This document shows, piece after piece, positions 1 through 12,781 of a DNA stretch of 14,514 bases. The position numbers and the translations under genes were made by a program. The notes under the pieces are model-generated. The model had not been told where the DNA came from. It did no database searches and saw nothing but the letters and a program-made list of their open reading frames with translations. Source of the DNA: Candidatus Heimdallarchaeota archaeon (GTDB lineage: Archaea > Asgardarchaeota > Heimdallarchaeia > Heimdallarchaeales > Heimdallarchaeaceae); assembly GCA_030668875.1 (NCBI GenBank), contig DAOVER010000064.1, positions 1-14,514 of the forward strand, in the 5' to 3' direction. The number at the start of each line of letters is the position of its first letter. Positions within the stretch are counted from its first letter, which is position 1.

Positions 1-255
1 GAGGTAGGGATAAAAGTCATCTTGACGGAAGAAGATTATACCTCCAAATGTTCATTTCTAGATAACGAGGTGATCAAAAAACATCCCAATTATCTGGGAA
101 GAAGATTGAAAAGAGGTTTATTCAGAAGCAAAACCGGTATCCTGCTTAACGCTGATTGCAACTCAGCTGGCAATATCGGTAGAAAAGTATTCCCGCTGGT
201 CTTCACCTACGGGACAGTGGATGCCGTGAGTCATCTTCACTGTTGGACTGTTTAG
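1..255 (+). mobile_element. tnpB: 3' end of an IS200/IS605- or IS607-associated TnpB RNA-guided nuclease gene, truncated at the left window edge
   Basis: Frame 1 is open from base 1: EVGIKVILTEEDYTSKCSFLDNE...YLGRRLKRGLFRSKTGILLNADCNSAGNIGRK. The E-x-YTSK, G-x-R-x-x-RGLF and NADxNxAxNI (RuvC-III Asp) motifs are typical of TnpB C-termini. Confidence 0.9.
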
Positions 256-1250: not shown

Positions 1251-1943
1251 TCATTTTTTCCAGAACTGCCACCTTTTTTTAGCTGAAGATCCTTTTTTAT
1301 CTTCTACTCTGCTAACTGTTTTCCTTAATTCTAGAATACCATCCCTTAGTCCCAATTTATAGATAAGCTCGCGAAAACCATCAGGTTCATTTTCTTCTTC
1401 AATCACATAAATGATTGGAAATCTTTTTCTCTTTACTTCTAGCTGTCTAGTGATTCTGCCGGCTTCATACTTCTCCTTAACTTGACTATCTTTACCAATC
1501 CAAACATAAAGTATGTTATAAGCATCCAGAACAAAAGCATCATCTGATTGAAAGCGTTTGTGTTCAATAGGAAGTTCAGAAACTATTATCTCTCCTTCAT
1601 CATTCTCCTTAATCTGAAGCAATCTGAAATCTTTCTCGTACTTTGTGTCAATTGATTTGAGAAATCCTAAAGTATCTCCTTCAACAACTTCAAAATCAAT
1701 CTGTTCATTAAACTCTACAGGTTCTAAACCTTGATTGATAGTTTCAATTTTCAGTTCATTGTTTTGAATTTCAATCTTCTTTGCTCCCCAAGAACCTATA
1801 AATTTCTCATCAGCAAAAGATTTGGAACCTAACCATATCCAGAGAATGCTTTCTGTTTCAATAACATAAACGTCACCATTAAGAAACTGATACGGTTCCG
1901 TGATTGGAATCAGTTCATTTCCTACAATATGAAATACATTCAT
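1251..1943 (-). CDS. Two-domain gelsolin-family protein (Asgard 2DGel-like actin regulator); probable start ATG 1943, ORF open from 2015
   Basis: Two gelsolin repeats: FLNGDVYVIETESILWIWLGSKSFADEK and FQSDDAFVLDAYNILYVWIGKDSQVKEK...EENEPDGF. The C-terminal tail contains LRKT and KKRWQFWKK. Confidence 0.9.
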   Translation of the reverse strand: MNVFHIVGNELIPITEPYQFLNGDVYVIETESILWIWLGSKSFADEKFIGSWGAKKIEIQNNELKIETINQGLEPVEFNEQIDFEVVEGDTLGFLKSIDTKYEKDFRLLQIKENDEGEIIVSELPIEHKRFQSDDAFVLDAYNILYVWIGKDSQVKEKYEAGRITRQLEVKRKRFPIIYVIEEENEPDGFRELIYKLGLRDGILELRKTVSRVEDKKGSSAKKRWQFWKK

Positions 1944-2090
1944 AGATAGTAAAAGTAATCCTTTGTTAAAACAGTTTTCCCAATAGTCCCTCGTGTTTGG
2001 GTTGATAGTTTGCAAAGTCTTTTATATTTCCATTAGGTGTTCAGATATTGTAAATATATAGTGAATTATTTCATTATATTTCAAGCATTA

Positions 2091-2624
2091 ATGGTGATAA
2101 AAATTAGAAAACAAAGAATTATAAAAGACTATGAAGCTCTGAGAAAATTACATAAAGAAGGAATCGTTGCGCAAGTAAAAACATTCCCTAAAGGTAAGAA
2201 ATCCATGGATCATCTAGCTGTTGGGTTCACTGCTCCTAAGGGGACCCCTTATGCTGGAGGTAAATATAAATTAGAGATTTTCTTTGGTCCAAATTATCCT
2301 TACAAACCTCCCTTTGTAAGACTTCACACACCTATTTGGCATCCTAATTTCTGGCCTAATCCAAAAGAATATCCAAAGAAGAGAAATATTTGTCTTGCTC
2401 TTGTAGATAATGATTTGGTTGGTAAACACGATGGTTGGTCTCCATCTAAAAGTATCACTACTGTCATTCACTCAATTCTTGCTATGTTTAACGTTGAAGG
2501 AGCGTACGTAAATCCTAAGGATGTATTTAACAAAGAAGCTGCTTTGGAATTTTTAAATAATAAAAAGAAATTCATTAAAAAAGCAAATACAATCAATAAG
2601 AAGTATGCAAAATCGTATTGGTAA
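2091..2624 (+). CDS. Ubiquitin-conjugating enzyme E2 (UBC fold); probable start ATG 2091
   Basis: Helix 1 RKQRIIKDY; PKGTPYAGGKYKLEIFFGPNYPYKPPFVRLHTPIWHPN; catalytic Cys in NICL (TGT 2391-2393); WSPSKSITTVIHSI; N.EAA...NKKKF. Confidence 0.95.
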   Translation: MVIKIRKQRIIKDYEALRKLHKEGIVAQVKTFPKGKKSMDHLAVGFTAPKGTPYAGGKYKLEIFFGPNYPYKPPFVRLHTPIWHPNFWPNPKEYPKKRNICLALVDNDLVGKHDGWSPSKSITTVIHSILAMFNVEGAYVNPKDVFNKEAALEFLNNKKKFIKKANTINKKYAKSYW

Positions 2625-3379
2625 TACTAGAATTAGATCTATCTGATGTGAAAATTATGGAAGATGAAGATAACAATTATCCTGTTGAATATAAAAAACT
2701 CCTTGAGAAAATCGAAGCAATTGAAAAAACTCTAGAATTGTTTAAAGTTGATGAAATTGTTGAGGATGTTGAAAAGGAAATTAAAGAAATTAGTGAGGAA
2801 ACCATTTCTGAAGATATTCTTCAGATCAAACCTATTTCAGAGATTGTAATAAAACCTAAAGCTTATCTAAAACTTGCAAAACATGCCTTAACCTATGCAA
2901 ATGATGCAATCCCTAAGAAGAAATGGGTTGAAGTAATAGGATTGCTTACAGGAAATATTAGGGGAGAAGAAACACCATTAGAACAAGTTGTTGTCGAGGA
3001 CTATTGGCCTGTAGATCAGGGTGATGCTGTGAGTGTAGAAATTGTTGATCAAAATATATTTACAGAAATCTTCCATAAAAAGAGAAACGAGCATTTTATA
3101 ATCGGTTGGGCTCATTCCCATCCAAGCTATACACCATTTCTGAGTGGTGATGATTATAGTACACATCTAAGATATCAAACATTTTGGAATAAATCTATAG
3201 CTCTTGTAATAGATCCTTTGATGCTCTCCCCAAAGGATTATGGAATTGGTGTATTTCGCATACATCAAGATAAACAAAAATATTACCAACTATCTGTTGA
3301 AGTTGAAGGAATGAGTAGTGAAGCGTGTTATGAGTCCATAAACACTTTTATGAAAAATCAAACCGATAATTCTAACTAG
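2618..3379 (+). CDS. JAMM/MPN+ metalloprotease (Rpn11/CSN5-like) with an acidic N-terminal coiled-coil extension; start is TTG 2618 or ATG 2657
   Basis: AYLKLAKHA...EVIGLLTG (Glu at 2930). Complete H-x-H-x7-S-x2-D motif in GWAHSHPSYTPFLSGDD (3113-3154), followed by IALVIDP. Confidence 0.93.
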   Translation: MVILELDLSDVKIMEDEDNNYPVEYKKLLEKIEAIEKTLELFKVDEIVEDVEKEIKEISEETISEDILQIKPISEIVIKPKAYLKLAKHALTYANDAIPKKKWVEVIGLLTGNIRGEETPLEQVVVEDYWPVDQGDAVSVEIVDQNIFTEIFHKKRNEHFIIGWAHSHPSYTPFLSGDDYSTHLRYQTFWNKSIALVIDPLMLSPKDYGIGVFRIHQDKQKYYQLSVEVEGMSSEACYESINTFMKNQTDNSN

Positions 3380-3402
3380 AAAATATACGAGTTGTATTTT
3401 AA

Positions 3403-4515
3403 TTGGATTTAAATGATTTCAAAACCTATCTGGCAATCGGGATTGTTGGTTTAGTTGTTGGAATACTTTATCTAATTCTCCAAGATGATTTATCTAAAAC
3501 GTTAACTATTTTCTTCATAGCTCTGTACATTATTGTTTCATTAAGATATATTTTGGAAAGGAGACACTATAAGAAACACAAAGCGATTCTTGCTAGTACT
3601 CAATTCTTGCTCCTCCCTTTTAGCATTGTTTTGATGGGCAACTATATCTCTCCTCTAGTATACGGTTTGTTCACAATAACTATTGACATTTCTGGTGGAA
3701 ATACGATACAGATGTTCTTCAATTTTGTTTCTCTGTCTCTTATTATCCCAGTTATAATTTTAACTTTTCACTTTAATAATTACTACTCAAGAAAATGGCC
3801 AGCAATAGCTATTAGAAGAAAAGTGAAGAGAAGAAGAAGTATTCCTTTAATAATTCATAGTGTTTTCATTTTCACAATTCTATTAGGATTTTTTATAAAC
3901 GGGCAAATTGATCTAGTTAGTCTTATTTTCGCAATTATATTCTTGATTTTTATTTTTAGATATTTCATATTTGTTAGATTGATAAAATCAGAAAGACGTA
4001 CAGTAATAATGTCTAGTAGTTCTCCTAGCAGACAATCTACTAGGGCAAGAACTTCATCAACAACAAGTCGAAGGTCTTCTTCTCAAACTTCCAGGAGCAG
4101 ACAAATATCCTCTTCAACAAGAACTAGAACAGTTCAGTCAGCTTCTAGAGCTAAAAGAAGTAGTGCTAGGATTGATTCTGGTATTGAAATAACAAACAGA
4201 AAGAAAACTAAGAAACCCACAAAAACCATTAAGACTAAAACTACAGTTCGTGATTTCTTCCCAAATGGTAAGGCAAGTAAAGAAGAAGTGAAATGCATTA
4301 TTTGTTTTATGGATTTTGAGAAGAAGGATACAAGAAAAGTAATCCTCTGCCCTCATTGTAAGTATCCAGCTCATGAAGATGAATTTAGAAGTTGGTACCA
4401 AAATTCAAAATTCTGTGCAAGATGTAATAAGCCAATTTCAGCCTCATATGTAAGAAACCCTAAATACAGAATCACAACAAAAATCTATATTGAAAAAGTA
4501 ATTGACAAATTATAA
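3403..4515 (+). CDS. Polytopic membrane protein with a Ser/Arg-rich linker and a C-terminal RING-like zinc finger (putative membrane E3 ligase)
   Basis: About 5-6 hydrophobic segments in aa 1-192 (judged by eye), then a low-complexity S/R/T linker, then C-x2-C-x14-C-x2-C-x4-H-x2-E-x3-W-x6-C-x2-C (4294-4425). It lies in an operon with the E2 and JAMM genes. TTG start. Confidence 0.85.
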   Translation: MDLNDFKTYLAIGIVGLVVGILYLILQDDLSKTLTIFFIALYIIVSLRYILERRHYKKHKAILASTQFLLLPFSIVLMGNYISPLVYGLFTITIDISGGNTIQMFFNFVSLSLIIPVIILTFHFNNYYSRKWPAIAIRRKVKRRRSIPLIIHSVFIFTILLGFFINGQIDLVSLIFAIIFLIFIFRYFIFVRLIKSERRTVIMSSSSPSRQSTRARTSSTTSRRSSSQTSRSRQISSSTRTRTVQSASRAKRSSARIDSGIEITNRKKTKKPTKTIKTKTTVRDFFPNGKASKEEVKCIICFMDFEKKDTRKVILCPHCKYPAHEDEFRSWYQNSKFCARCNKPISASYVRNPKYRITTKIYIEKVIDKL

Positions 4516-4597
4516 AAAGCATTAAGTCTTATTATGTCAAGAGTGCAGAAAACCAACTATTAAATATGTCTCACTTAAAATACACTAAGGTCTGAAA

Positions 4598-5176
4598 ATG
4601 GGTACTTTGGCACATATAACTGGATCATTCATAACATCGTTATCCTTAGTCGGTGTTTCTATATACTACTTTATCGAAGGAAATGTTGACTTAGGCAAAT
4701 TTTTCATTTTCTTATCCATATATGTCTTTATTACCTTATTTTACATAATTCGAAGTTTATTCTATTTAAAACATAAAGCCACTTTCAACGAATTCATTTA
4801 TGTTTTTATTTTACCAATTGTTCCCGTTTTAATATTGCTGGCTCAAATGCTCTTTGATGTAAATCACTTTGGTACAGTTACTATTAGCGGATTTCCTGAT
4901 GAAAGTTTCAGGGAGGTCAATGCTGTTGATTTTCTTCTATTACCTTATTATCTATATAGTACATTTTTACTCTTTAGAACCTTCATTAGATATCCATTCA
5001 TTAGATTTAGAAGTACAAGCGAAAAAGGGATGAATCCTAAATTTGCCGGTGTTTTACTAATGTTAATTATCCCCGTCATCTATATTGTTACATCAGTAAC
5101 ATCTTTCGAAAATTTCTTCCTACTAATTTCTGGAATAATTTATCTCTACTCAGCCATTATGGCTATATTTGTATGA
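4598..5176 (+). CDS. Polytopic membrane protein, RING-less paralog of the upstream E3 membrane domain
   Basis: About 6 hydrophobic segments. Colinear matches with the 3403 protein: DLSK/DLGK, Y..KHKA, LP, TI.ISG/TVTISG, P.I..R and terminal IFV. Confidence 0.8.
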   Translation: MGTLAHITGSFITSLSLVGVSIYYFIEGNVDLGKFFIFLSIYVFITLFYIIRSLFYLKHKATFNEFIYVFILPIVPVLILLAQMLFDVNHFGTVTISGFPDESFREVNAVDFLLLPYYLYSTFLLFRTFIRYPFIRFRSTSEKGMNPKFAGVLLMLIIPVIYIVTSVTSFENFFLLISGIIYLYSAIMAIFV

Positions 5177-5194
5177 GTAATGTTTAACATCTTC

Positions 5195-5854
5195 TTAACT
5201 TCTTTTTTGCCTTGGTTTCTTGGTTTGTTTAGGATACTTTTGGCTTGGAACTTTATGTTTAGGTATCTTTTGTTTAGGTATTTTATCCTTTTTTACTTCC
5301 TCTATCTTTGATGTTGCAGGAGCTTCTTTTGTTTTCTTTTCTCTTCTTTCTTCTTTTGGTAATGAACGAGAATATGCTTCTGTAATCTCTTTGAATTTCT
5401 CTCGATCATCAGAAGGAGGTGTTTCTTCTCTCTTTTTCTTCTCTTCTTTCTTTAGTGCTTTAGAATCTATAGAGTCTATTTCTTTATATTTCTCTCTTCT
5501 AGGTGGAAGAGACTCCCTTTTCTTTGGTTTAGATTTTTCTTCTTGTGGAATGTAATTAGGTGATTTTGTACTTGAGAAAGTGTCTTGTTTAGGGATTTTA
5601 TCTTTAGGTATCTTTTGTTTTGGAATCCCTTTATTTCTTCCTGATTCTCGACTGTCTCTAAACTGTGATCTTACAGGTTTTGTTTCTGTTTTTCGAGCTT
5701 TTCTTTTTTCAGGAGGAAAAAAATCTTCATCTTTAATCTGCTGTTTAGGGATTTTATCTTTAGGTAATTTGTGCTTTGGGATTTTCGAATCGTATGGAAA
5801 TTTTTGCTTGGGAATTTTGTTTGAAATGCTTTTTTTTCTGTTTCTTTTACCCAT
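5195..5854 (-). CDS. Lys/Glu/Pro-rich, probably disordered protein with K-(hydrophobic)-P-K-x pentapeptide repeats
   Basis: 219-aa ORF starting at ATG, with an upstream AGGTG Shine-Dalgarno-like motif. About 12 KIPKQ-like units occur in three clusters. Confidence 0.75.
   Translation of the reverse strand: MGKRNRKKSISNKIPKQKFPYDSKIPKHKLPKDKIPKQQIKDEDFFPPEKRKARKTETKPVRSQFRDSRESGRNKGIPKQKIPKDKIPKQDTFSSTKSPNYIPQEEKSKPKKRESLPPRREKYKEIDSIDSKALKKEEKKKREETPPSDDREKFKEITEAYSRSLPKEERREKKTKEAPATSKIEEVKKDKIPKQKIPKHKVPSQKYPKQTKKPRQKRS
5586..5766. repeat. Exact 25-bp direct repeat TGTTTAGGGATTTTATCTTTAGGTA (5586-5610 and 5742-5766); degenerate copies near 5222-5290
   Basis: Read directly from the sequence. 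It encodes PKDKIPKQ in the minus-strand protein. Confidence 0.9.
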
Positions 5855-6109
5855 GTGTAAGTCACACCTATTCTAGCCTTTCATGTTTTTCATGATTTTT
5901 GAACGTTTTCAATTTTCATCCTTGTAATTAACATAAGTTACTTGGTTTGAAAACTTATCTAAACCCCAAATTAGTGATAATTATATTTTTGATAAAGATT
6001 TTAGGTTTATTTAAGTTTTTAAATAAGAATAGTTATGTTAAACTATAGGTAATTTTTTAATAAATATGTTGGACTATATTATTTGTATACTAACAAAGGA
6101 TTGAAAAAA

Positions 6110-6469
6110 ATGAGCGAAGAATTTGAAGAAATTTCTTTTGACGAAGAAAAAGAAGAAGAAGAGGTTGTAGAAACCGAAATCAAATCTAAAACTCCTGACA
6201 AGACTAAAACTCCTGCAGGTAAGAAAATAAGTGTATATTTCCAAAGCACAATTGGACCAAGTCCAAAACAAGAAAAACTTGTTGTAGCAACTGATGCTCC
6301 TATTAGTGATATAAAATATACAGTTAGTCAGATCTTTGGGTTACCACCTGATGAATTCCATCTATCTCATGCTGGAAGAACATGTGACAATGACGATGTT
6401 CTTGAAGATTATGGGGTTGAAGATGGAGATACAGTTCTACTGATTCCAGTTTCAACAGCAGGTTGTTAA
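6110..6469 (+). CDS. Ubiquitin-like modifier precursor with an acidic N-terminal extension, ending ...STAG-C; probable start ATG 6110
   Basis: Ungapped manual alignment to ubiquitin residues 23-76: ISDIKYTVSQIFGLPPDEFHLSHAGRTCDNDDVLEDYGVEDGDTVLLIPVSTAG versus [54 protein letters not shown]. Lies next to the E1 gene. Confidence 0.92.
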   Translation: MSEEFEEISFDEEKEEEEVVETEIKSKTPDKTKTPAGKKISVYFQSTIGPSPKQEKLVVATDAPISDIKYTVSQIFGLPPDEFHLSHAGRTCDNDDVLEDYGVEDGDTVLLIPVSTAGC

Positions 6470-6494
6470 TACGAAGTTTAATACTTATAAATTA

Positions 6495-6521
6495 AGACTC
6501 AAATTGAGTCTCTTTATTTTT
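6495..6521 (+). terminator. Inverted repeat followed by a T-tract between the Ubl and E1 genes (terminator/attenuator or protein-binding site)
   Basis: AGACTCAA-A-TTGAGTCT is a perfect inverted repeat (6495-6511), followed by CTTTATTTTT. Confidence 0.45.
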
Positions 6522-6601
6522 CTACTGAAAACTACATTTAAATTTAAATAACACAGAATTTATCTTCAATAAACATATCTAAATGGAAAGAGTGCTATAA
6601 G

Positions 6602-7858
6602 ATGAACGCAAAAGACACAAAAAAATCTAATTTCTTCGATGAAACCCTTTCAAAAGATGAGAGAATAAGATTCGATAGACAACTTAGATTACCAGGATGG
6701 AATCAGAAAGCTTTGAAGGATTCAACAGTTTTAATCGTTGGAGTAGGAGGATTAGGAACAGAAACAGCAAAAAACTTAGCTATGGCTGGTGTGGGAACTA
6801 TTCATCTTATCGATTTAGATATTATTGAATATTCGAATCTGAATAGACAAATATTGTTCTCAGATGCAGATGAAGGAGATCCTAAAGCTAAAGTTGCAGC
6901 AAGAGCTCTAGAAAAGATAAACCCCTATAGTAAATACATTTGGCACCATTCCAATCTAGAAGATGTTGATCCAGAAGTCTATGCGACAGCTGATTTGTAT
7001 ATTTCTGGCTTAGATTCTGTTACAGCAAGGAATGAGCTAATACGAAGAGCGGTTCAGTTTAAGAAACCGATGATTGATGGAGGAACTGCAACATATTATG
7101 GTCATGTTTATACTTATTTACCAGGTAAAAATGCATGCCTTCAATGTGATCCACAACAAGAACGCGAAAGAGAATCTTTAGCAGCTTGCACACTTGTAGG
7201 AATACCAAGAAAGAAATCTCATTGTTTGTTGAAAGGACAACTATATTTTGAATCAAAGAACAATAGACCCCCCGATACGACTGTTTTGGAAGAAATGAAT
7301 CTTGTAATAAATTATGCAAATAATTTAGTGAAAGAGCATTTTCCATCTGAAAATGTATTTTCTTTAGATGAAGCTGTGAAAATGGTTGACCAGCACGACC
7401 CAACAATCATAAGTATTAATGCTGTAATGGCCTCTTTACAATCACAAGAAGCATTGAAACTTATGCACCATCTCAAAGGAATAGAACTAGGTACTGTAAA
7501 TCCTGAGTATGTTATTTACAATGGATTAGTAGGGAAATTCTTCTATATAGAAAAGCCACCAAATAAGAAATGTATGCTCTGTGGTAAAAATGCTACTGCA
7601 ATTGAAGAAGTAAAATTACCTGCAACTGCTACTATCGATGTTTTACTCTCAATTATTAAAAGTAGAGGGTATGATTATGATCCTGAATTTTTACCTTCAT
7701 TTTGGTTAATTGATAAAAAAGACCCTGTAGATGTAGAAATAGATTCAACTGTGAAAGAACAAGGGATACGAAACCATGAAACATTGTATGTTACAGGTCT
7801 TACGAATAAAGGTGAAGAAATCGATCTTAATGTTAGGATAATCCTGAATCAAGGCTAA
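6602..7858 (+). CDS. Ubiquitin-like activating enzyme E1 (UBA2/UBA3-type, with catalytic-Cys domain and probable C-terminal ubiquitin-fold domain)
   Basis: RFDRQLRL; Rossmann VGVGGLG; D..EYSNLNRQ; DGGT; zinc pairs CLQC (7136) and CMLC (7571); catalytic motif CTLVGIPRKKSHC (Cys 7187-7189); PTIISINAVMA; about 90-aa C-terminal extension. Confidence 0.95.
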   Translation: MNAKDTKKSNFFDETLSKDERIRFDRQLRLPGWNQKALKDSTVLIVGVGGLGTETAKNLAMAGVGTIHLIDLDIIEYSNLNRQILFSDADEGDPKAKVAARALEKINPYSKYIWHHSNLEDVDPEVYATADLYISGLDSVTARNELIRRAVQFKKPMIDGGTATYYGHVYTYLPGKNACLQCDPQQERERESLAACTLVGIPRKKSHCLLKGQLYFESKNNRPPDTTVLEEMNLVINYANNLVKEHFPSENVFSLDEAVKMVDQHDPTIISINAVMASLQSQEALKLMHHLKGIELGTVNPEYVIYNGLVGKFFYIEKPPNKKCMLCGKNATAIEEVKLPATATIDVLLSIIKSRGYDYDPEFLPSFWLIDKKDPVDVEIDSTVKEQGIRNHETLYVTGLTNKGEEIDLNVRIILNQG

Positions 7859-9194: not shown

Positions 9195-9398
9195 GTGGTT
9201 AATGACTCTTTTACTTATATACGAAGCGATGGAAATATGATCCTAAGAGAAAAGTGCCATTTGTGTGGATATGTGACAGATAGACATCTAATTCATGCAG
9301 GGGATGGTAAGACATATTGCGTGTCGCACTATTTATCACATGTTTTAAATGATGAAATTATCCCCCCACATAATCAAAAAATCACAAACCAAGATTAA
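9195..9398 (+). CDS. Small zinc-finger protein (C-x2-C-x17-C-x2-H); start is GTG 9195 or ATG 9237
   Basis: CHLCGYVTDRHLIHAGDGKTYCVSHY (9255-9332). Confidence 0.65.
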   Translation: MVNDSFTYIRSDGNMILREKCHLCGYVTDRHLIHAGDGKTYCVSHYLSHVLNDEIIPPHNQKITNQD

Positions 9399-9416: not shown

Positions 9417-10220
9417 CTACCCTGTTATGGTAGTTAGAACTTCATTCTTTTTTTTTATATTCGGGTTTTGTAAAGCAAATTTTAGAGTTGTAAATAATGC
9501 TGCAACTCCTAATGTTCCAGTAATTGGATAAATTGACCAGATATCACCATAACTTAATAAAACAAAGTAAACACCCAACATGCTTGTAGTAATACCTATA
9601 AACATGGACCAAGACCATTAAAATGCTGAATCTATCTATGAAATTGTTGGATTTTTCATTACCAGATAAGTAACTATTGATAGAATCGCCCATACTCCAA
9701 ATCCAATAATTGGATAATATTGCCATTCTTCCCAACTACTAAACAGACCAAAGCCTAATGCGATCATGGTAAATGCAATCGTAAGAAAGAGAACTACAGT
9801 TCAAAGAGTTAGTATATACAAAGGTTTTCGCTGCCTGTCTTGTAAAGTGAAGTGCACTCCTACTGACCATAAAACTAGAAGAAAAGTTCCCAGTAAAGGC
9901 ATAGATTGAAAATCTTCCCACTGTCCTAAGCTAGTATAAGCAAATGCGATCATGCTAATAGTTGTAGCTAGAAACAGAAAGAAAAACCAAATTATAACAC
10001 TTATAGTAGGTCGAATATTCCTTTTTCTAAAGATAAAATAGAAACTAGTCATCAACACTATAAGAACTACCATTCCAAAGGATGGACTACCAAACCATTC
10101 TAAACCTGAAAAATCATTTAACAGAACTAATACAAATACAATTCCAATTATGCTTCCAATTATCCATGTCAAGATTGTTAATGCAAGTAGAAATCTTTGT
10201 TTTTCTTTCATAGAGGCCAT
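9417..10220 (-). pseudogene. Disrupted membrane protein with four ~59-62-aa repeats (about 8 TM segments); copy 1
   Basis: ORFs 9801-10220 and 9417-9605 are in the same frame, separated by TGA 9801-9803 (TGG/Trp in the paralog at 12371-12373), TAG 9636-9638 and TAA 9618-9620. The intervening translation continues the repeat pattern. Confidence 0.8.
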
Positions 10221-10271: not shown

Positions 10272-12092
10272 TCAATCTTGAGGAATAGTTATTTTGAAAA
10301 GTGTTTCCCCCTTAACTGATTGAAAGTTTATTTGCCATCCATGAGCTTCAATTATTTTTTTCACAATTGCAAGTCCAATGCCTTGACCTTTTTGATCTTT
10401 TCTTGTTGAATAGCCTATTTTAAATATCTTTTCTATTTCACTTTTTGGTATCATCTGTCCATCATTGATAATTAATATCTCTATTTTATCATCATAAACC
10501 TGTGTTTTTATTTCAATTCTACTAGGATTCCCATGAATAACAGCATTTTCGAGAATATTGCTGAAGACCTGAGAGAGTTTTTCGCTGTCACAACTAACTG
10601 TTGGTAAGTTATCATGAGCAAATTCTACTGATTCTGGTATTACTAATTTTACAATATCCTTTACTATAATATTCAGATTTACTTTATCTTTTTTCTCTAT
10701 TATTTCTCCTCTTTCAGCTAAGTATAGAGAACGATCAAGCAATTTTCTCAAATACTTAATTTTACTCTGTATTTTGTCTGTAATGTCAATCTTGGATTTC
10801 TCTCCATGAAGCTGCAAATATCCTTCCATCACGGTAAGATTATTCCTTAAATCATGAGCCATAAAATTGGAAAAATTACTAAGCTCTTCTCTTTGCTTTA
10901 GTAGTTCTTCTTCTATTTGCTTGTAAGCAGTGATATCCTCCAGTGCTAGAAGCACTCCAGTGGTCTCCTCTTCTTTATCCATTAATGGAATCATTTTATA
11001 TCTGTAGTGAGTTAATTTTCCCCATTTTGATGTATAAGGTAATTCCGAACTGAATTGTTCTTTATTCTTTATACATCTTACAATGTTTCCTGATATTCCT
11101 GCATTCTTTAAAAGTGGAAATGTTATCAGATTAATTGCCTTTGTTGATTCTTCAGAGGGTGAACCAAGAAATTTAAGAGCCACTTTATTTACATCTTCGA
11201 TATTTCCTTCTAAGTTACAAGTTACAATCCCAATAGGATTTTCTTGAAAAAGTGTTATATACCTTTGTTCACTTTCTAATAATGCTGTTTCATATTGTTT
11301 CAGTTTGGAGATATCAACTATGATTCCTCTTATTCCTATAGGTTTATCATCTTCCATAATAAGACTTGAAAATGCTAATGAAGGAATACATGTACCATCC
11401 TTTCTCATAATAGCAATCTCTAATGGAGGTTCATATTTTTCATCTATTAATCGATTAAAAGTTTTTGTGACAACCTCACGATTTTCCGGAACAACTACTT
11501 GTAAAGCATTCATTCCTTGTTTAACTTCTTCTAGGGAATATCCATATTCCTCAAAGAAGTAATTGTTGATGTAAGAAATTTTCATGTTCTTGTCAAGCTC
11601 AAAAACGATTTCTGGTAATAAATTAGCCAATTCTCGAAATTTCCTCTCACTTTTTCTTACATTATCCTCCATTTCCTTGTGGCTAATAACTCTTTGAATA
11701 ACATGATACAATTCACTATATTGACTCTGGGGATCTCCTCCTTTTTTTATGTAATAATCAGCGCCAAGATTTAATGCTTCAATCACTACTTCTTCTCTCC
11801 CTCTACCTGTAAAAATGATGAAAGGAATATCATAGTTCTTCTCCTTTAATTGACGAAGAAGATCAAGACCATTCATTTCTGGCATTTGATAATCTGCTAT
11901 AATAATATCGAAATTTGATGTATCTAATAAACTGAAAATTTGTTCTGGATTAGAGAGTGAATGAACTGTTACTAGCCCATTACTAAGTTCTTCTAAAAAA
12001 AGTTTAGTCAATTGGAGAAAATCTTTATCATCATCAACATATACTATTCTTATTTTTTTAGTATCAGAGATAATAAATTCTTCATCCTTCAT
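10272..12092 (-). CDS. Hybrid sensor histidine kinase (REC-PAS-PAS-HisKA-HATPase_c)
   Basis: REC: VYVDDD, IIADYQMPEMNG, IFTGRG, YYIKK. Two PAS-like segments. H-box MAHDLRNNL; N-box QVFSNILENA; D/G boxes INDG, F.IGYSTR, GQGIGLAIVKKIIEAHG. Confidence 0.95.
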   Translation of the reverse strand: MKDEEFIISDTKKIRIVYVDDDKDFLQLTKLFLEELSNGLVTVHSLSNPEQIFSLLDTSNFDIIIADYQMPEMNGLDLLRQLKEKNYDIPFIIFTGRGREEVVIEALNLGADYYIKKGGDPQSQYSELYHVIQRVISHKEMEDNVRKSERKFRELANLLPEIVFELDKNMKISYINNYFFEEYGYSLEEVKQGMNALQVVVPENREVVTKTFNRLIDEKYEPPLEIAIMRKDGTCIPSLAFSSLIMEDDKPIGIRGIIVDISKLKQYETALLESEQRYITLFQENPIGIVTCNLEGNIEDVNKVALKFLGSPSEESTKAINLITFPLLKNAGISGNIVRCIKNKEQFSSELPYTSKWGKLTHYRYKMIPLMDKEEETTGVLLALEDITAYKQIEEELLKQREELSNFSNFMAHDLRNNLTVMEGYLQLHGEKSKIDITDKIQSKIKYLRKLLDRSLYLAERGEIIEKKDKVNLNIIVKDIVKLVIPESVEFAHDNLPTVSCDSEKLSQVFSNILENAVIHGNPSRIEIKTQVYDDKIEILIINDGQMIPKSEIEKIFKIGYSTRKDQKGQGIGLAIVKKIIEAHGWQINFQSVKGETLFKITIPQD

Positions 12093-12259: not shown

Positions 12260-12781
12260 TTATTTTTCTTTTATATTTGAGTTTCTTAAAGTACATTTTA
12301 AAGTTGTAATTAGAGCTGCAAATCCTAATGCGAACATGGTAAATGCAATTATAAGAAATAAAACTGCAGTCCAGAGAGTTAGTATAAACAAAGGTTTTCG
12401 TTGTCTATCCTTCAAAGTGAAGTGTACTCCTACTGCCCATAGAACCATAAGAAATGTCCCCAGTAAAGGCATGGATTGAAAATTTTCCCATTGTCCTAAA
12501 CTAGCATAAGCTAATGCGATCATGCTAATAGTTGTAGCTAGAAACAGAAAGAAGAACCAAATCGTAACAATCATAGTTGGTTGAAGATTCCTATTTCTAA
12601 AGATAAGATAAAAACTAGTCATTAACACTATAAGAAAAACCATTCCAGAAGTTGGACTGCCAAACCACTCTAAACCTGAAAAATCATTGAATAATACAAA
12701 TGCAAACAAAATTCCAATTATGCTTCCTACTATCCAAGTCCAGATGGTAAATGCTAGTAACAACCTTTGTTTTTCTTTCAT
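12260..12781 (-). CDS. Membrane protein, paralog (copy 2) of 9417-10220 with an in-frame internal deletion
   Basis: Manual count gives 23 mismatches in 190 nt (12371-12560 versus 9801-9990, about 88% identity). The C-terminus ALGF|AALITTLKCTLRNSNIKEK joins two segments that are 246 bp apart in copy 1. Confidence 0.8.
   Translation of the reverse strand: MKEKQRLLLAFTIWTWIVGSIIGILFAFVLFNDFSGLEWFGSPTSGMVFLIVLMTSFYLIFRNRNLQPTMIVTIWFFFLFLATTISMIALAYASLGQWENFQSMPLLGTFLMVLWAVGVHFTLKDRQRKPLFILTLWTAVLFLIIAFTMFALGFAALITTLKCTLRNSNIKEK

Follow-up and report, generated by a model that had tools for sequence, protein, structure and literature searches.

One of the closest described systems to the locus studied here is the operon of Caldiarchaeum subterraneum, which encodes a ubiquitin (Ub), an E1-like protein, an E2-like protein, a small RING finger protein (srfp) and an Rpn11-like JAMM protein (PMC5654768, PMC6043591). 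Archaeal cascades with soluble RINGs have been reconstituted from Caldiarchaeum (PMC5654768) and from Helarchaeia (bioRxiv 10.1101/2023.07.25.550441), and accounts of these systems present the ubiquitin as pro-ubiquitin or as a precursor that undergoes processing (PMC5654768, PMC6043591, bioRxiv 10.1101/2023.07.25.550441). The E1, E2 and soluble RING E3 of Helarchaeia modify UEV-Vps23, which includes a ubiquitin E2 variant (UEV) domain (bioRxiv 10.1101/2023.07.25.550441), and Hatano et al. described a Heimdall ubiquitin that is linked to the endosomal sorting machinery known as ESCRT, with UEV-Vps28 (PMC9192718). Here we describe a locus of Candidatus Heimdallarchaeota archaeon that lies at nucleotides 2091-7858 of a 14,514-nucleotide stretch (hereafter, the window), which is contig C80 of a 3.2-Mb source assembly with 31% G+C. 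In database searches, the nearest relatives of the window's proteins carry the labels Heimdallarchaeota or Heimdallarchaeaceae. The same five types of protein as in Caldiarchaeum are clustered in this locus: a ubiquitin-like modifier (Ubl), an E1 activating enzyme, an E2 conjugating enzyme, a JAMM metalloprotease and a protein with a RING-type finger, the last of which is predicted to be embedded in the membrane. Further features shared with Caldiarchaeum are a catalytic Cys in the E1, an E2 of the canonical UBC type, a JAMM protein of the Rpn11 type and a Ubl precursor with a C-terminal extension. The best single-domain solved matches of the Ubl are the 'Ubiquitin-like protein' entries 2mqj and 6fj7, which we take to be Caldiarchaeum ubiquitin.

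We read the locus, with reasonable but not high confidence, as a working Ubl conjugation system of a Heimdallarchaeaceae-type Asgard archaeon in which the E3 is anchored in the cell membrane. Judged from sequence, the cascade and the membrane location of the RING protein are well supported, and E3 activity of that protein is likely. The initial annotation of this DNA had proposed that a complete eukaryote-type cascade is encoded here, and the sequence comparisons support it, since all five components were recovered by a combination of Pfam matches, hydropathy, and profile and fold searches. The ThiF, UQ_con, JAB and ubiquitin families of Pfam were all matched, as had been anticipated, but the finger misses every Pfam RING cut-off. 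Because the single sequence falls below these thresholds, a family profile and a fold search were needed to call the finger a RING. The catalytic residues said to be intact are present at the expected sequence positions, namely E1 Cys196, the E2 Cys codon at 2391 and the JAMM motif.

The clustering of these genes is far beyond chance. A word search found 55 homologs of the membrane-finger protein, and 40 related loci were inspected: three public contigs, 29 genome loci (L015-L043) from the same genus, family, order and class as the window's archaeon, and eight stretches from five further families (labels from L005 to L051 denote related loci or stretches, and C-numbers denote contigs of the source assembly). 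The genes are linked in related genomes, a point on which the initial annotation had staked its proposal, since every one of the 40 loci has E2 and/or JAMM directly upstream of its membrane-RING gene, with JAMM as the immediate upstream neighbour throughout. In L015-L043, JAMM adjoins the membrane-RING gene in 29/29 and E2 in 27/29; a contig end or short flank truncates the other two. Genes in the order Ubl (one to three copies)-E1-E2-JAMM-membrane RING are colinear in L006, in L007 and in all eight loci of the five other families. In the window's genus, E2-JAMM-ligase-partner form one unit and Ubl-E1 a second, with a convergent Lys-rich gene between them. The arrangement is not special to the window; from the comparison of gene orders it is the standard Asgard operon, whose ancestral form has been rearranged in the window's genus.

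The RING-type finger as a ligase candidate

The finger comprises residues 298-341 (nt 4294-4425) of the membrane protein and has the spacing C-x2-C-x14-C-x2-C-x4-H-x2-E-x3-W-x6-C-x2-C. The consensus of 24 sequences from across the phylum is C-x2-C-x13-17-C-P-x-C-x4-H-x2-E-x3-W-x6-C-x-R-C, in which nine positions never vary (C, C, C, C, H, E, W, C, C). Ligand 4 is a Cys, two residues past ligand 3, and not a His, and ligand 6 is Glu in 61 of 62 family representatives, which leaves seven invariant Cys/His positions and not eight. Searched against the PDB, the family profile retrieved RNF24 (8.5e-7) and then RNF4, ARK2C, EL5 and RNF38; in the alignment with RNF24, Glu327 falls on the sixth ligand Cys, and Trp331 lies four residues on, as in RING-H2 fingers. 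An AlphaFold2 model of the finger reached a predicted local distance difference test score (pLDDT) of 94.9, and nearly all of the best 50 Foldseek hits to it were RING or U-box domains, or else RING-like parts of larger complexes (probability up to 1.00, TM score by target up to 0.77, E from 3e-3). On profile and model, we class the finger as a RING-H2 relative with a predicted RING/U-box fold.

Two soluble RINGs help to place the Glu. A small canonical RING in another Asgard family (L045:12471-12722, minus strand), encoded directly upstream of a Ubl gene, has the same spacing and a Cys at ligand 6. A soluble 195-aa paralog of the finger is encoded on contig C34 of the window's own genome (L014:1441-2028, minus strand); it combines a zinc ribbon at the N-terminus with a coiled coil and a RING-H2 finger that has His at ligand 6, and it scores 32.1 bits with zf-RING_2 (cut-off 27.3). 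The Cys of the one and the His of the other support the assignment of the Glu to the sixth-ligand position. From its sequence, the L014 protein is a second E3 candidate in the genome. Within the window, no other finger of this kind was found, and the only RING candidate of the cluster is, as first proposed, a protein with about six transmembrane (TM) helices. A 67-aa open reading frame (ORF) at 9195-9398 (plus strand) has a C-x2-C-x17-C-x2-H motif and no Pfam match, and is not a RING.

Several observations weigh against an active membrane ligase or against the assembly of these parts into one pathway. The best score of the finger alone with the Pfam RING models is 15.7 bits, with a cut-off of 27.3. 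One canonical zinc ligand is missing, and since structural zinc is not usually held by Glu, the first zinc site may be changed or unoccupied. Many active RINGs carry a linchpin Arg or Lys after the last Cys, and the residue at this place is Asn, Ser or Asp. A predicted complex of the E2 and the finger, one of the checks suggested by the initial annotation, scored above its controls (0.47 vs 0.01 for the best control), with contacts that agreed between runs to at least 95% and a partner pLDDT of at least 89. The support is weak. Of 80 solved complexes, 58 reached the mark for a pass, as did 2 of 110 mismatched pairs, and scores of 0.60 or under were shared by only seven of the 80 solved complexes and both passing mismatches. 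Since E2-RING complexes have already been solved, the pass may reflect memory of such structures. Elsewhere the genome encodes three more E2-like proteins, two more members of the ThiF family and another ubiquitin, so that the pairing of the parts by operon membership is putative. In the L045 operon, soluble and membrane RINGs occur together, with the soluble one at the operon head, and it could be the real E3 in lineages such as this one.

An alternative that draws on these observations, and which we regard as unlikely, is that the membrane protein is a docking site or the main substrate and not a catalytic E3. The degenerate finger would then only recruit E2~Ubl, or the protein and its Lys-rich linker would be modified, and ligation would be E3-independent or carried out by a soluble RING. 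The near-universal exchange of Cys for Glu at ligand 6, the lack of a canonical linchpin residue, the high Lys content of the linker near the finger, the small canonical RING that heads the L045 operon and the soluble paralog elsewhere in the window's genome would all suit such a role. They are opposed by the absence of another RING from the window cluster and by the fusion of the finger to the membrane domain in essentially all members of the family. Moreover, the Ile/Phe of C-I-[IF]-C and Trp331, which occupy positions that contact the E2 in known RINGs, are invariant. The membrane protein is the likelier E3.

Membrane domain, RING-less paralog and Lys-rich gene

The AlphaFold2 model of the membrane domain (pLDDT 93.1) has six helices and two small hairpins, in agreement with hydropathy. 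Lys and Arg are found in loop 53-66 (five), loop 129-145 (nine) and the C-terminal linker (27), and the other loops have none. Since these residues are restricted to alternate loops and the linker, the positive-inside rule predicts an N-in, C-in topology in which both termini and the finger face the cytoplasm. According to the alignment and the model, the invariant residues of the domain are mostly on cytoplasmic loops. The linker of about 90 residues is poorly conserved and varies in length (alignment columns 220-380), and becomes Lys-rich near the finger.

Foldseek gave no match for the membrane domain in the PDB (best E 0.54), VIA-align retrieved only generic helical proteins among 48,161 chains (best Z 7.8), and a shape search of the ESM Atlas gave TM scores of at most 0.41, although a missing fold match does not prove that the fold is new or different. 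Pfam and NCBIfam held nothing usable for the membrane domain, the neighbouring TM partner or the Lys-rich protein. In a feature search of the ESM Atlas with the whole ligase, only an unannotated archaeal 'hypothetical protein' cluster scored high (0.96); clusters of bacterial Prok-RING proteins, at 0.81, count as no more than leads. When 1.84 billion representative proteins were searched exhaustively with a profile, the membrane-domain family came to 91 clusters, and by this measure it is small and closed. The finger is present in 62 of the 63 full-length representatives, and a few members of about 190 aa are RING-less paralogs.

One such paralog is encoded next to the ligase in the window. 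The initial annotation had posited a dedicated TM partner, and the product of the neighbouring gene is indeed paralogous to the membrane domain of the ligase itself, but has no RING (hhalign probability 96.8%, E 2.4e-10 over 160 columns). The paralog is directly 3' of the RING gene in most Heimdall-class loci in which the flank reaches that far (L015-L019, L021-L034, L038, L040, L043, L005, L044 and L049). It is absent from L006 and from loci of other families among L045-L051, and is therefore a lineage-specific addition and not a core part. We consider it a candidate hetero-oligomer partner of the ligase.

The Lys-rich gene divides the cluster in two, and it is convergent to the TM partner in most loci of the genus. 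Homologs of its product are confined to Heimdallarchaeaceae, with six close relatives found by word search. A similar Lys-rich protein is encoded 3' of the operon in L006 (9698-10657), with a weak BLASTP match (E 2e-4), and BLASTP gave no significant match (E 2.5) between the window protein and the Lys-rich neighbour in L044. In L044 and L049, a non-homologous but Lys/Pro-rich ORF follows the partner gene. The Lys-rich protein may be part of the system, conceivably as a substrate or adaptor.

The pairing of a polytopic RING ligase with a related RING-less membrane protein resembles the logic of Hrd1 and Der1 in endoplasmic-reticulum-associated degradation (ERAD), and the six-helix domain and its paralog might by analogy form a Hrd1/Der1-like retrotranslocation channel through which tagged proteins, membrane or secreted, would be extracted for the proteasome. 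Archaea do have Cdc48 and 20S proteasomes (PMC13328587). We nevertheless think such a machine highly improbable, since Foldseek, VIA-align and the Atlas returned no Hrd1, Doa10, derlin or rhomboid match for the membrane-domain model, the conserved residues occupy cytoplasmic loops rather than a lateral gate, and the called genes and Pfam matches of L005-L007 and of the window include no partner of the Cdc48, derlin or lectin type. The likening of the locus to Hrd1 and Doa10/MARCH6 in the initial annotation comes down to a RING on a membrane, and operation in the manner of eukaryotic ERAD is not supported beyond that. Its description of the conjugation as directed at membrane proteins likewise derives from location only.

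The modifier, its enzymes and the proposed order of events

The Ubl precursor begins with an acidic N-terminal tail of about 40 residues that contains two S/T-K-T-P motifs, followed by a beta-grasp domain. Its C-terminus reads L-L-I-P-V-S-T-A-G118 and then a single Cys as a cap; Ala precedes the terminal Gly, and there is no Gly-Gly. The last Lys or Arg lies about 30 residues ahead of this Gly, and digestion of conjugates with trypsin would accordingly yield a long remnant. Every operon-linked Ubl ends in L-L-I-P-[AVH]-S-T-A-G followed by zero to four variable cap residues (C, K, M, YV, YF, RGY, IYY or KINI), many orthologs have no cap, and all of them retain the terminal Gly118. In alignment, the Ala-Gly falls on the Gly-Gly of the canonical ubiquitin of the same genome. 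The acidic tail with one or two S/T-K-T-P motifs is likewise present in all operon-linked Ubls across the phylum, so the modifier is as atypical as had been claimed, in both its Ala-Gly end and its tail. In other lineages, extra Ubl domains adjoin the operon (L047:13575-13817, minus strand; L046:13819-14064, plus strand; L048:3090-3314, minus strand). One of them is in a 503-aa ORF, with a large N-terminal region to which no family was assigned and a C-terminal Ubl that ends in S-R-A-G; the remaining ones are Ubl-like domains without a terminal Gly, at the C-terminus of membrane proteins of about 263 aa.

The motif of the JAMM protein, H-x-H-x7-S-x2-D (here H-S-H-P-x6-S-G-D-D), is intact at residues 166-179 (nt 3113-3154), and the upstream Glu is present within ...EVIGLL...; the probable true start of the gene is the ATG at 2657. 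The JAMM protein is likely the processing and deconjugating enzyme. Because many Ubl orthologs have no cap, deconjugation is more likely to be its conserved role than precursor processing. We place the start of the E2 at the ATG at 2091, although the open frame also permits a GTG at 2037. The E2 has an HPN motif at residues 84-86 and a single Cys, Cys101 (codon TGT, nt 2391-2393), seventeen residues past it. Its best solved relatives are UBE2T and UBC9 (about 1e-14), and in an alignment of 11 orthologs the mean column identity is 74%, with the HPN, an insertion and the Cys all invariant. The insertion, of about seven residues (F-W-P-x-P-x-E-Y-x3-R-N, window 2340-2393), lies between the HPN and the catalytic Cys; it is specific to the family, invariant in the 11 orthologs from across the phylum, and missing from UBE2T in a pairwise alignment.

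Ubiquitin is joined not only to proteins but also to phosphatidylethanolamine, by the membrane RING ligase Tul1. It is conceivable that the ligase joins the single-Gly Ubl to the amine head group of a membrane lipid, in the way that Atg8 is joined to phosphatidylethanolamine, and an Ala-Gly end in place of Gly-Gly would fit with a membrane-embedded ligase that has no recognisable substrate-binding domain. Given that the E1 is of the UBA3 type and the E2 a canonical UBC protein, and that they are not of the Atg7 and Atg3 types, we give lipid tagging very little credence.

The E1 has UBA3 as its best solved relative (E 5.5e-32, with UBA5 at only 1.4e-12). It has G-x-G-x2-G at residue 47 and C-x2-C pairs at 179 and 324, and Cys196 (nt 7187-7189), invariant in nine orthologs, aligns with the Cys of the UBA3 segment FPMCTIASMPR, which is the catalytic Cys of UBA3. 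With a profile of the nine orthologs the match to UBA3 improves to 8.9e-51, and the alignment extends into UBA3 residues 336-363, where we take the ubiquitin-fold domain (UFD) of UBA3 to begin; the C-terminal 90 or so residues of the E1 are for this reason probably a UFD. MoeB/ThiF models do match the E1 (E about 1e-36), though far under their cut-offs, which would suit a sulfur-carrier pair (MoaD/ThiS with MoeB/ThiF). That the Ubl and E1 form such a pair and are not part of a protein-tagging system is scarcely credible, since the E1 has a catalytic-Cys insert, aligns best with UBA3, UBA1 and UBA2 and is linked to E2, JAMM and RING across the phylum, and a separate, better MoeB-type ThiF gene is found on contig C38.

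A second, canonical ubiquitin cluster is present in the same genome on contig C91 (L011, C91:45672-49400), and it matches the ESCRT-linked Heimdall cluster (PMC9192718). Because C91 holds its own ubiquitin, E1 and UEV fusion protein (Table 1), the window cascade is a separate pathway with its own enzymes.

We infer the following order of events for the proposed membrane-anchored conjugation system. The JAMM protein would trim the one-residue Cys cap off the Ubl and expose Gly118, which the UBA3-like E1 would adenylate before loading the Ubl onto Cys196. The C-terminal UFD of the E1 would then pass the Ubl to Cys101 of the E2. The cytoplasmic finger, which would hang on its basic linker of about 90 residues below the six-helix membrane domain, may bind E2~Ubl and promote transfer to target lysines at the cytoplasmic face of the membrane. 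The RING-less paralog would probably assemble with the membrane domain of the ligase, and the JAMM protein may also strip the tag.

Other genes of the window have looser ties to the cluster. A two-domain gelsolin gene at 1251-2015 (minus strand) is head to head with the E2 gene; this adjacency recurs only in the two closest relatives with enough flank (L018 and L027), and a functional link is doubtful, since L005 has a different gene at that place. Two paralogous multi-pass membrane proteins without family matches (9801-10220 and 12260-12781, both minus strand) flank a hybrid response-regulator/PAS/histidine-kinase gene at 10272-12092 (minus strand). An open-ended frame at 1-255 (plus strand) with a sub-threshold Cas12f1-like TNB match (E 1.8e-4) could represent the terminal part of a TnpB-like gene. 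Searches of the window for tRNAs and Rfam families found none.

Table 1. Positions of the cluster genes, of the domains of the membrane RING protein and of the canonical ubiquitin genes on contig C91
Feature	Stretch	Position	Strand	Basis
E2 ubiquitin-conjugating enzyme, 177 aa	Window	2091-2624	+	Pfam UQ_con E 2.4e-26
JAMM/MPN+ metalloprotease, Rpn11-like	Window	2618-3379	+	Pfam JAB E 7.5e-13
Membrane RING protein, 370 aa, six hydrophobic helices and C-terminal finger	Window	3403-4515	+	Hydropathy, AlphaFold2
Six-helix membrane domain, residues 1-195	Window	3403-3987	+	Hydropathy, AlphaFold2
Basic Ser/Thr/Arg/Lys-rich linker, residues ~196-283	Window	3988-4251	+	Alignment, composition
Predicted cytoplasmic RING-type domain, residues 284-370	Window	4252-4515	+	Profile, fold model
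RING-less paralog of the ligase membrane domain, 192 aa	Window	4598-5176	+	BLASTP 1e-4; hhalign
Lys-rich (24% K) disordered protein, seven P-K-x-K motifs	Window	5195-5854	-	No Pfam/NCBIfam match
Ubl precursor, 119 aa	Window	6110-6469	+	Pfam ubiquitin E 1e-7
E1 activating enzyme, 418 aa	Window	6602-7858	+	Pfam ThiF E 1.4e-54
Cys-less UEV fusion protein, at least 388 aa	L011	1-1164	-	
E1, 339 aa	L011	1252-2271	-	
Ubiquitin, 82 aa, ends Gly-Gly-Tyr	L011	2412-2660	-	

Comparison with known systems

The single terminal Gly, exposed by removal of a short cap that ends in Cys, recalls UFM1, the precursor of which ends in Val-Gly-Ser-Cys and is handled by UBA5 and UFC1. A UFM1-like reading of the Gly-Cys terminus was rejected, and the resemblance is superficial: the E1 is closer to UBA3 than to UBA5, the E2 is a canonical UQ_con protein with HPN, and the cap varies or is absent among orthologs.

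Like Hrd1/synoviolin, gp78/AMFR, Doa10/MARCH6 and Tul1, the candidate ligase has a multi-pass membrane domain followed by a predicted cytoplasmic RING-type finger, and related membrane partners are a feature of Hrd1 as well. Matches of the finger profile to the RINGs of synoviolin, AMFR and Hrd1 are weak and fall short of significance (E 0.09-0.43), and in contrast to the eukaryotic ERAD ligases, the helix number differs and the membrane domain has no detectable relation to theirs in sequence or fold. The ESCRT-linked cascades of Asgard archaea belong to the same phylum and use the same enzyme classes; the window set has its own larger E1, E2, JAMM and membrane ligase, and unlike those cascades it does not adjoin ESCRT genes.

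Ubiquitylation at membranes, as in ERAD, endocytic and multivesicular-body sorting, and organelle quality control, is treated as a eukaryotic invention. What sets this locus apart is a phylum-wide Asgard operon in which the only ligase candidate, at least here, is an integral membrane protein of otherwise unmatched fold, and provided that the ligase is active, signalling of the ubiquitin type already had a membrane-based organisation before eukaryotes arose. Membrane-sited tagging in the style of ubiquitin is probably older than eukaryotes. As a more speculative suggestion, which we put forward with considerable doubt, the Ala-Gly Ubl and membrane RING could represent the prokaryotic antecedent of eukaryotic membrane ubiquitylation that tags membrane proteins or lipids at the cytoplasmic face for sorting by Asgard ESCRT or for extraction and degradation by Cdc48 and the proteasome, with the ligase and its RING-less twin as a new module for substrate recognition. 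The system is compact, with five or six genes and short soluble domains, so that experiments in vitro, and with the handful of Asgard archaea in culture, can address its activity directly.

Searches of openly available full-text papers found no mention of a membrane RING ligase or an Ala-Gly Ubl terminus in Asgard archaea. The E3 of Caldiarchaeum is a small soluble RING-H2 protein (C3H2C3), whereas the candidate in the window is a 370-aa membrane protein with six helices, the finger of which differs from the Caldiarchaeum RING in having Cys at ligand 4 and Glu at ligand 6. Caldiarchaeum ubiquitin is a precursor processed by Rpn11, whereas the window Ubl has its Ala-Gly end and an acidic N-terminal tail. 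Operons of Ub, E1, E2, RING and Rpn11 are known from Caldiarchaeum and have been reported for Asgard archaea; what this locus adds to them is the Ala-Gly end of the modifier and a RING protein, the likely ligase, that is embedded in the membrane.

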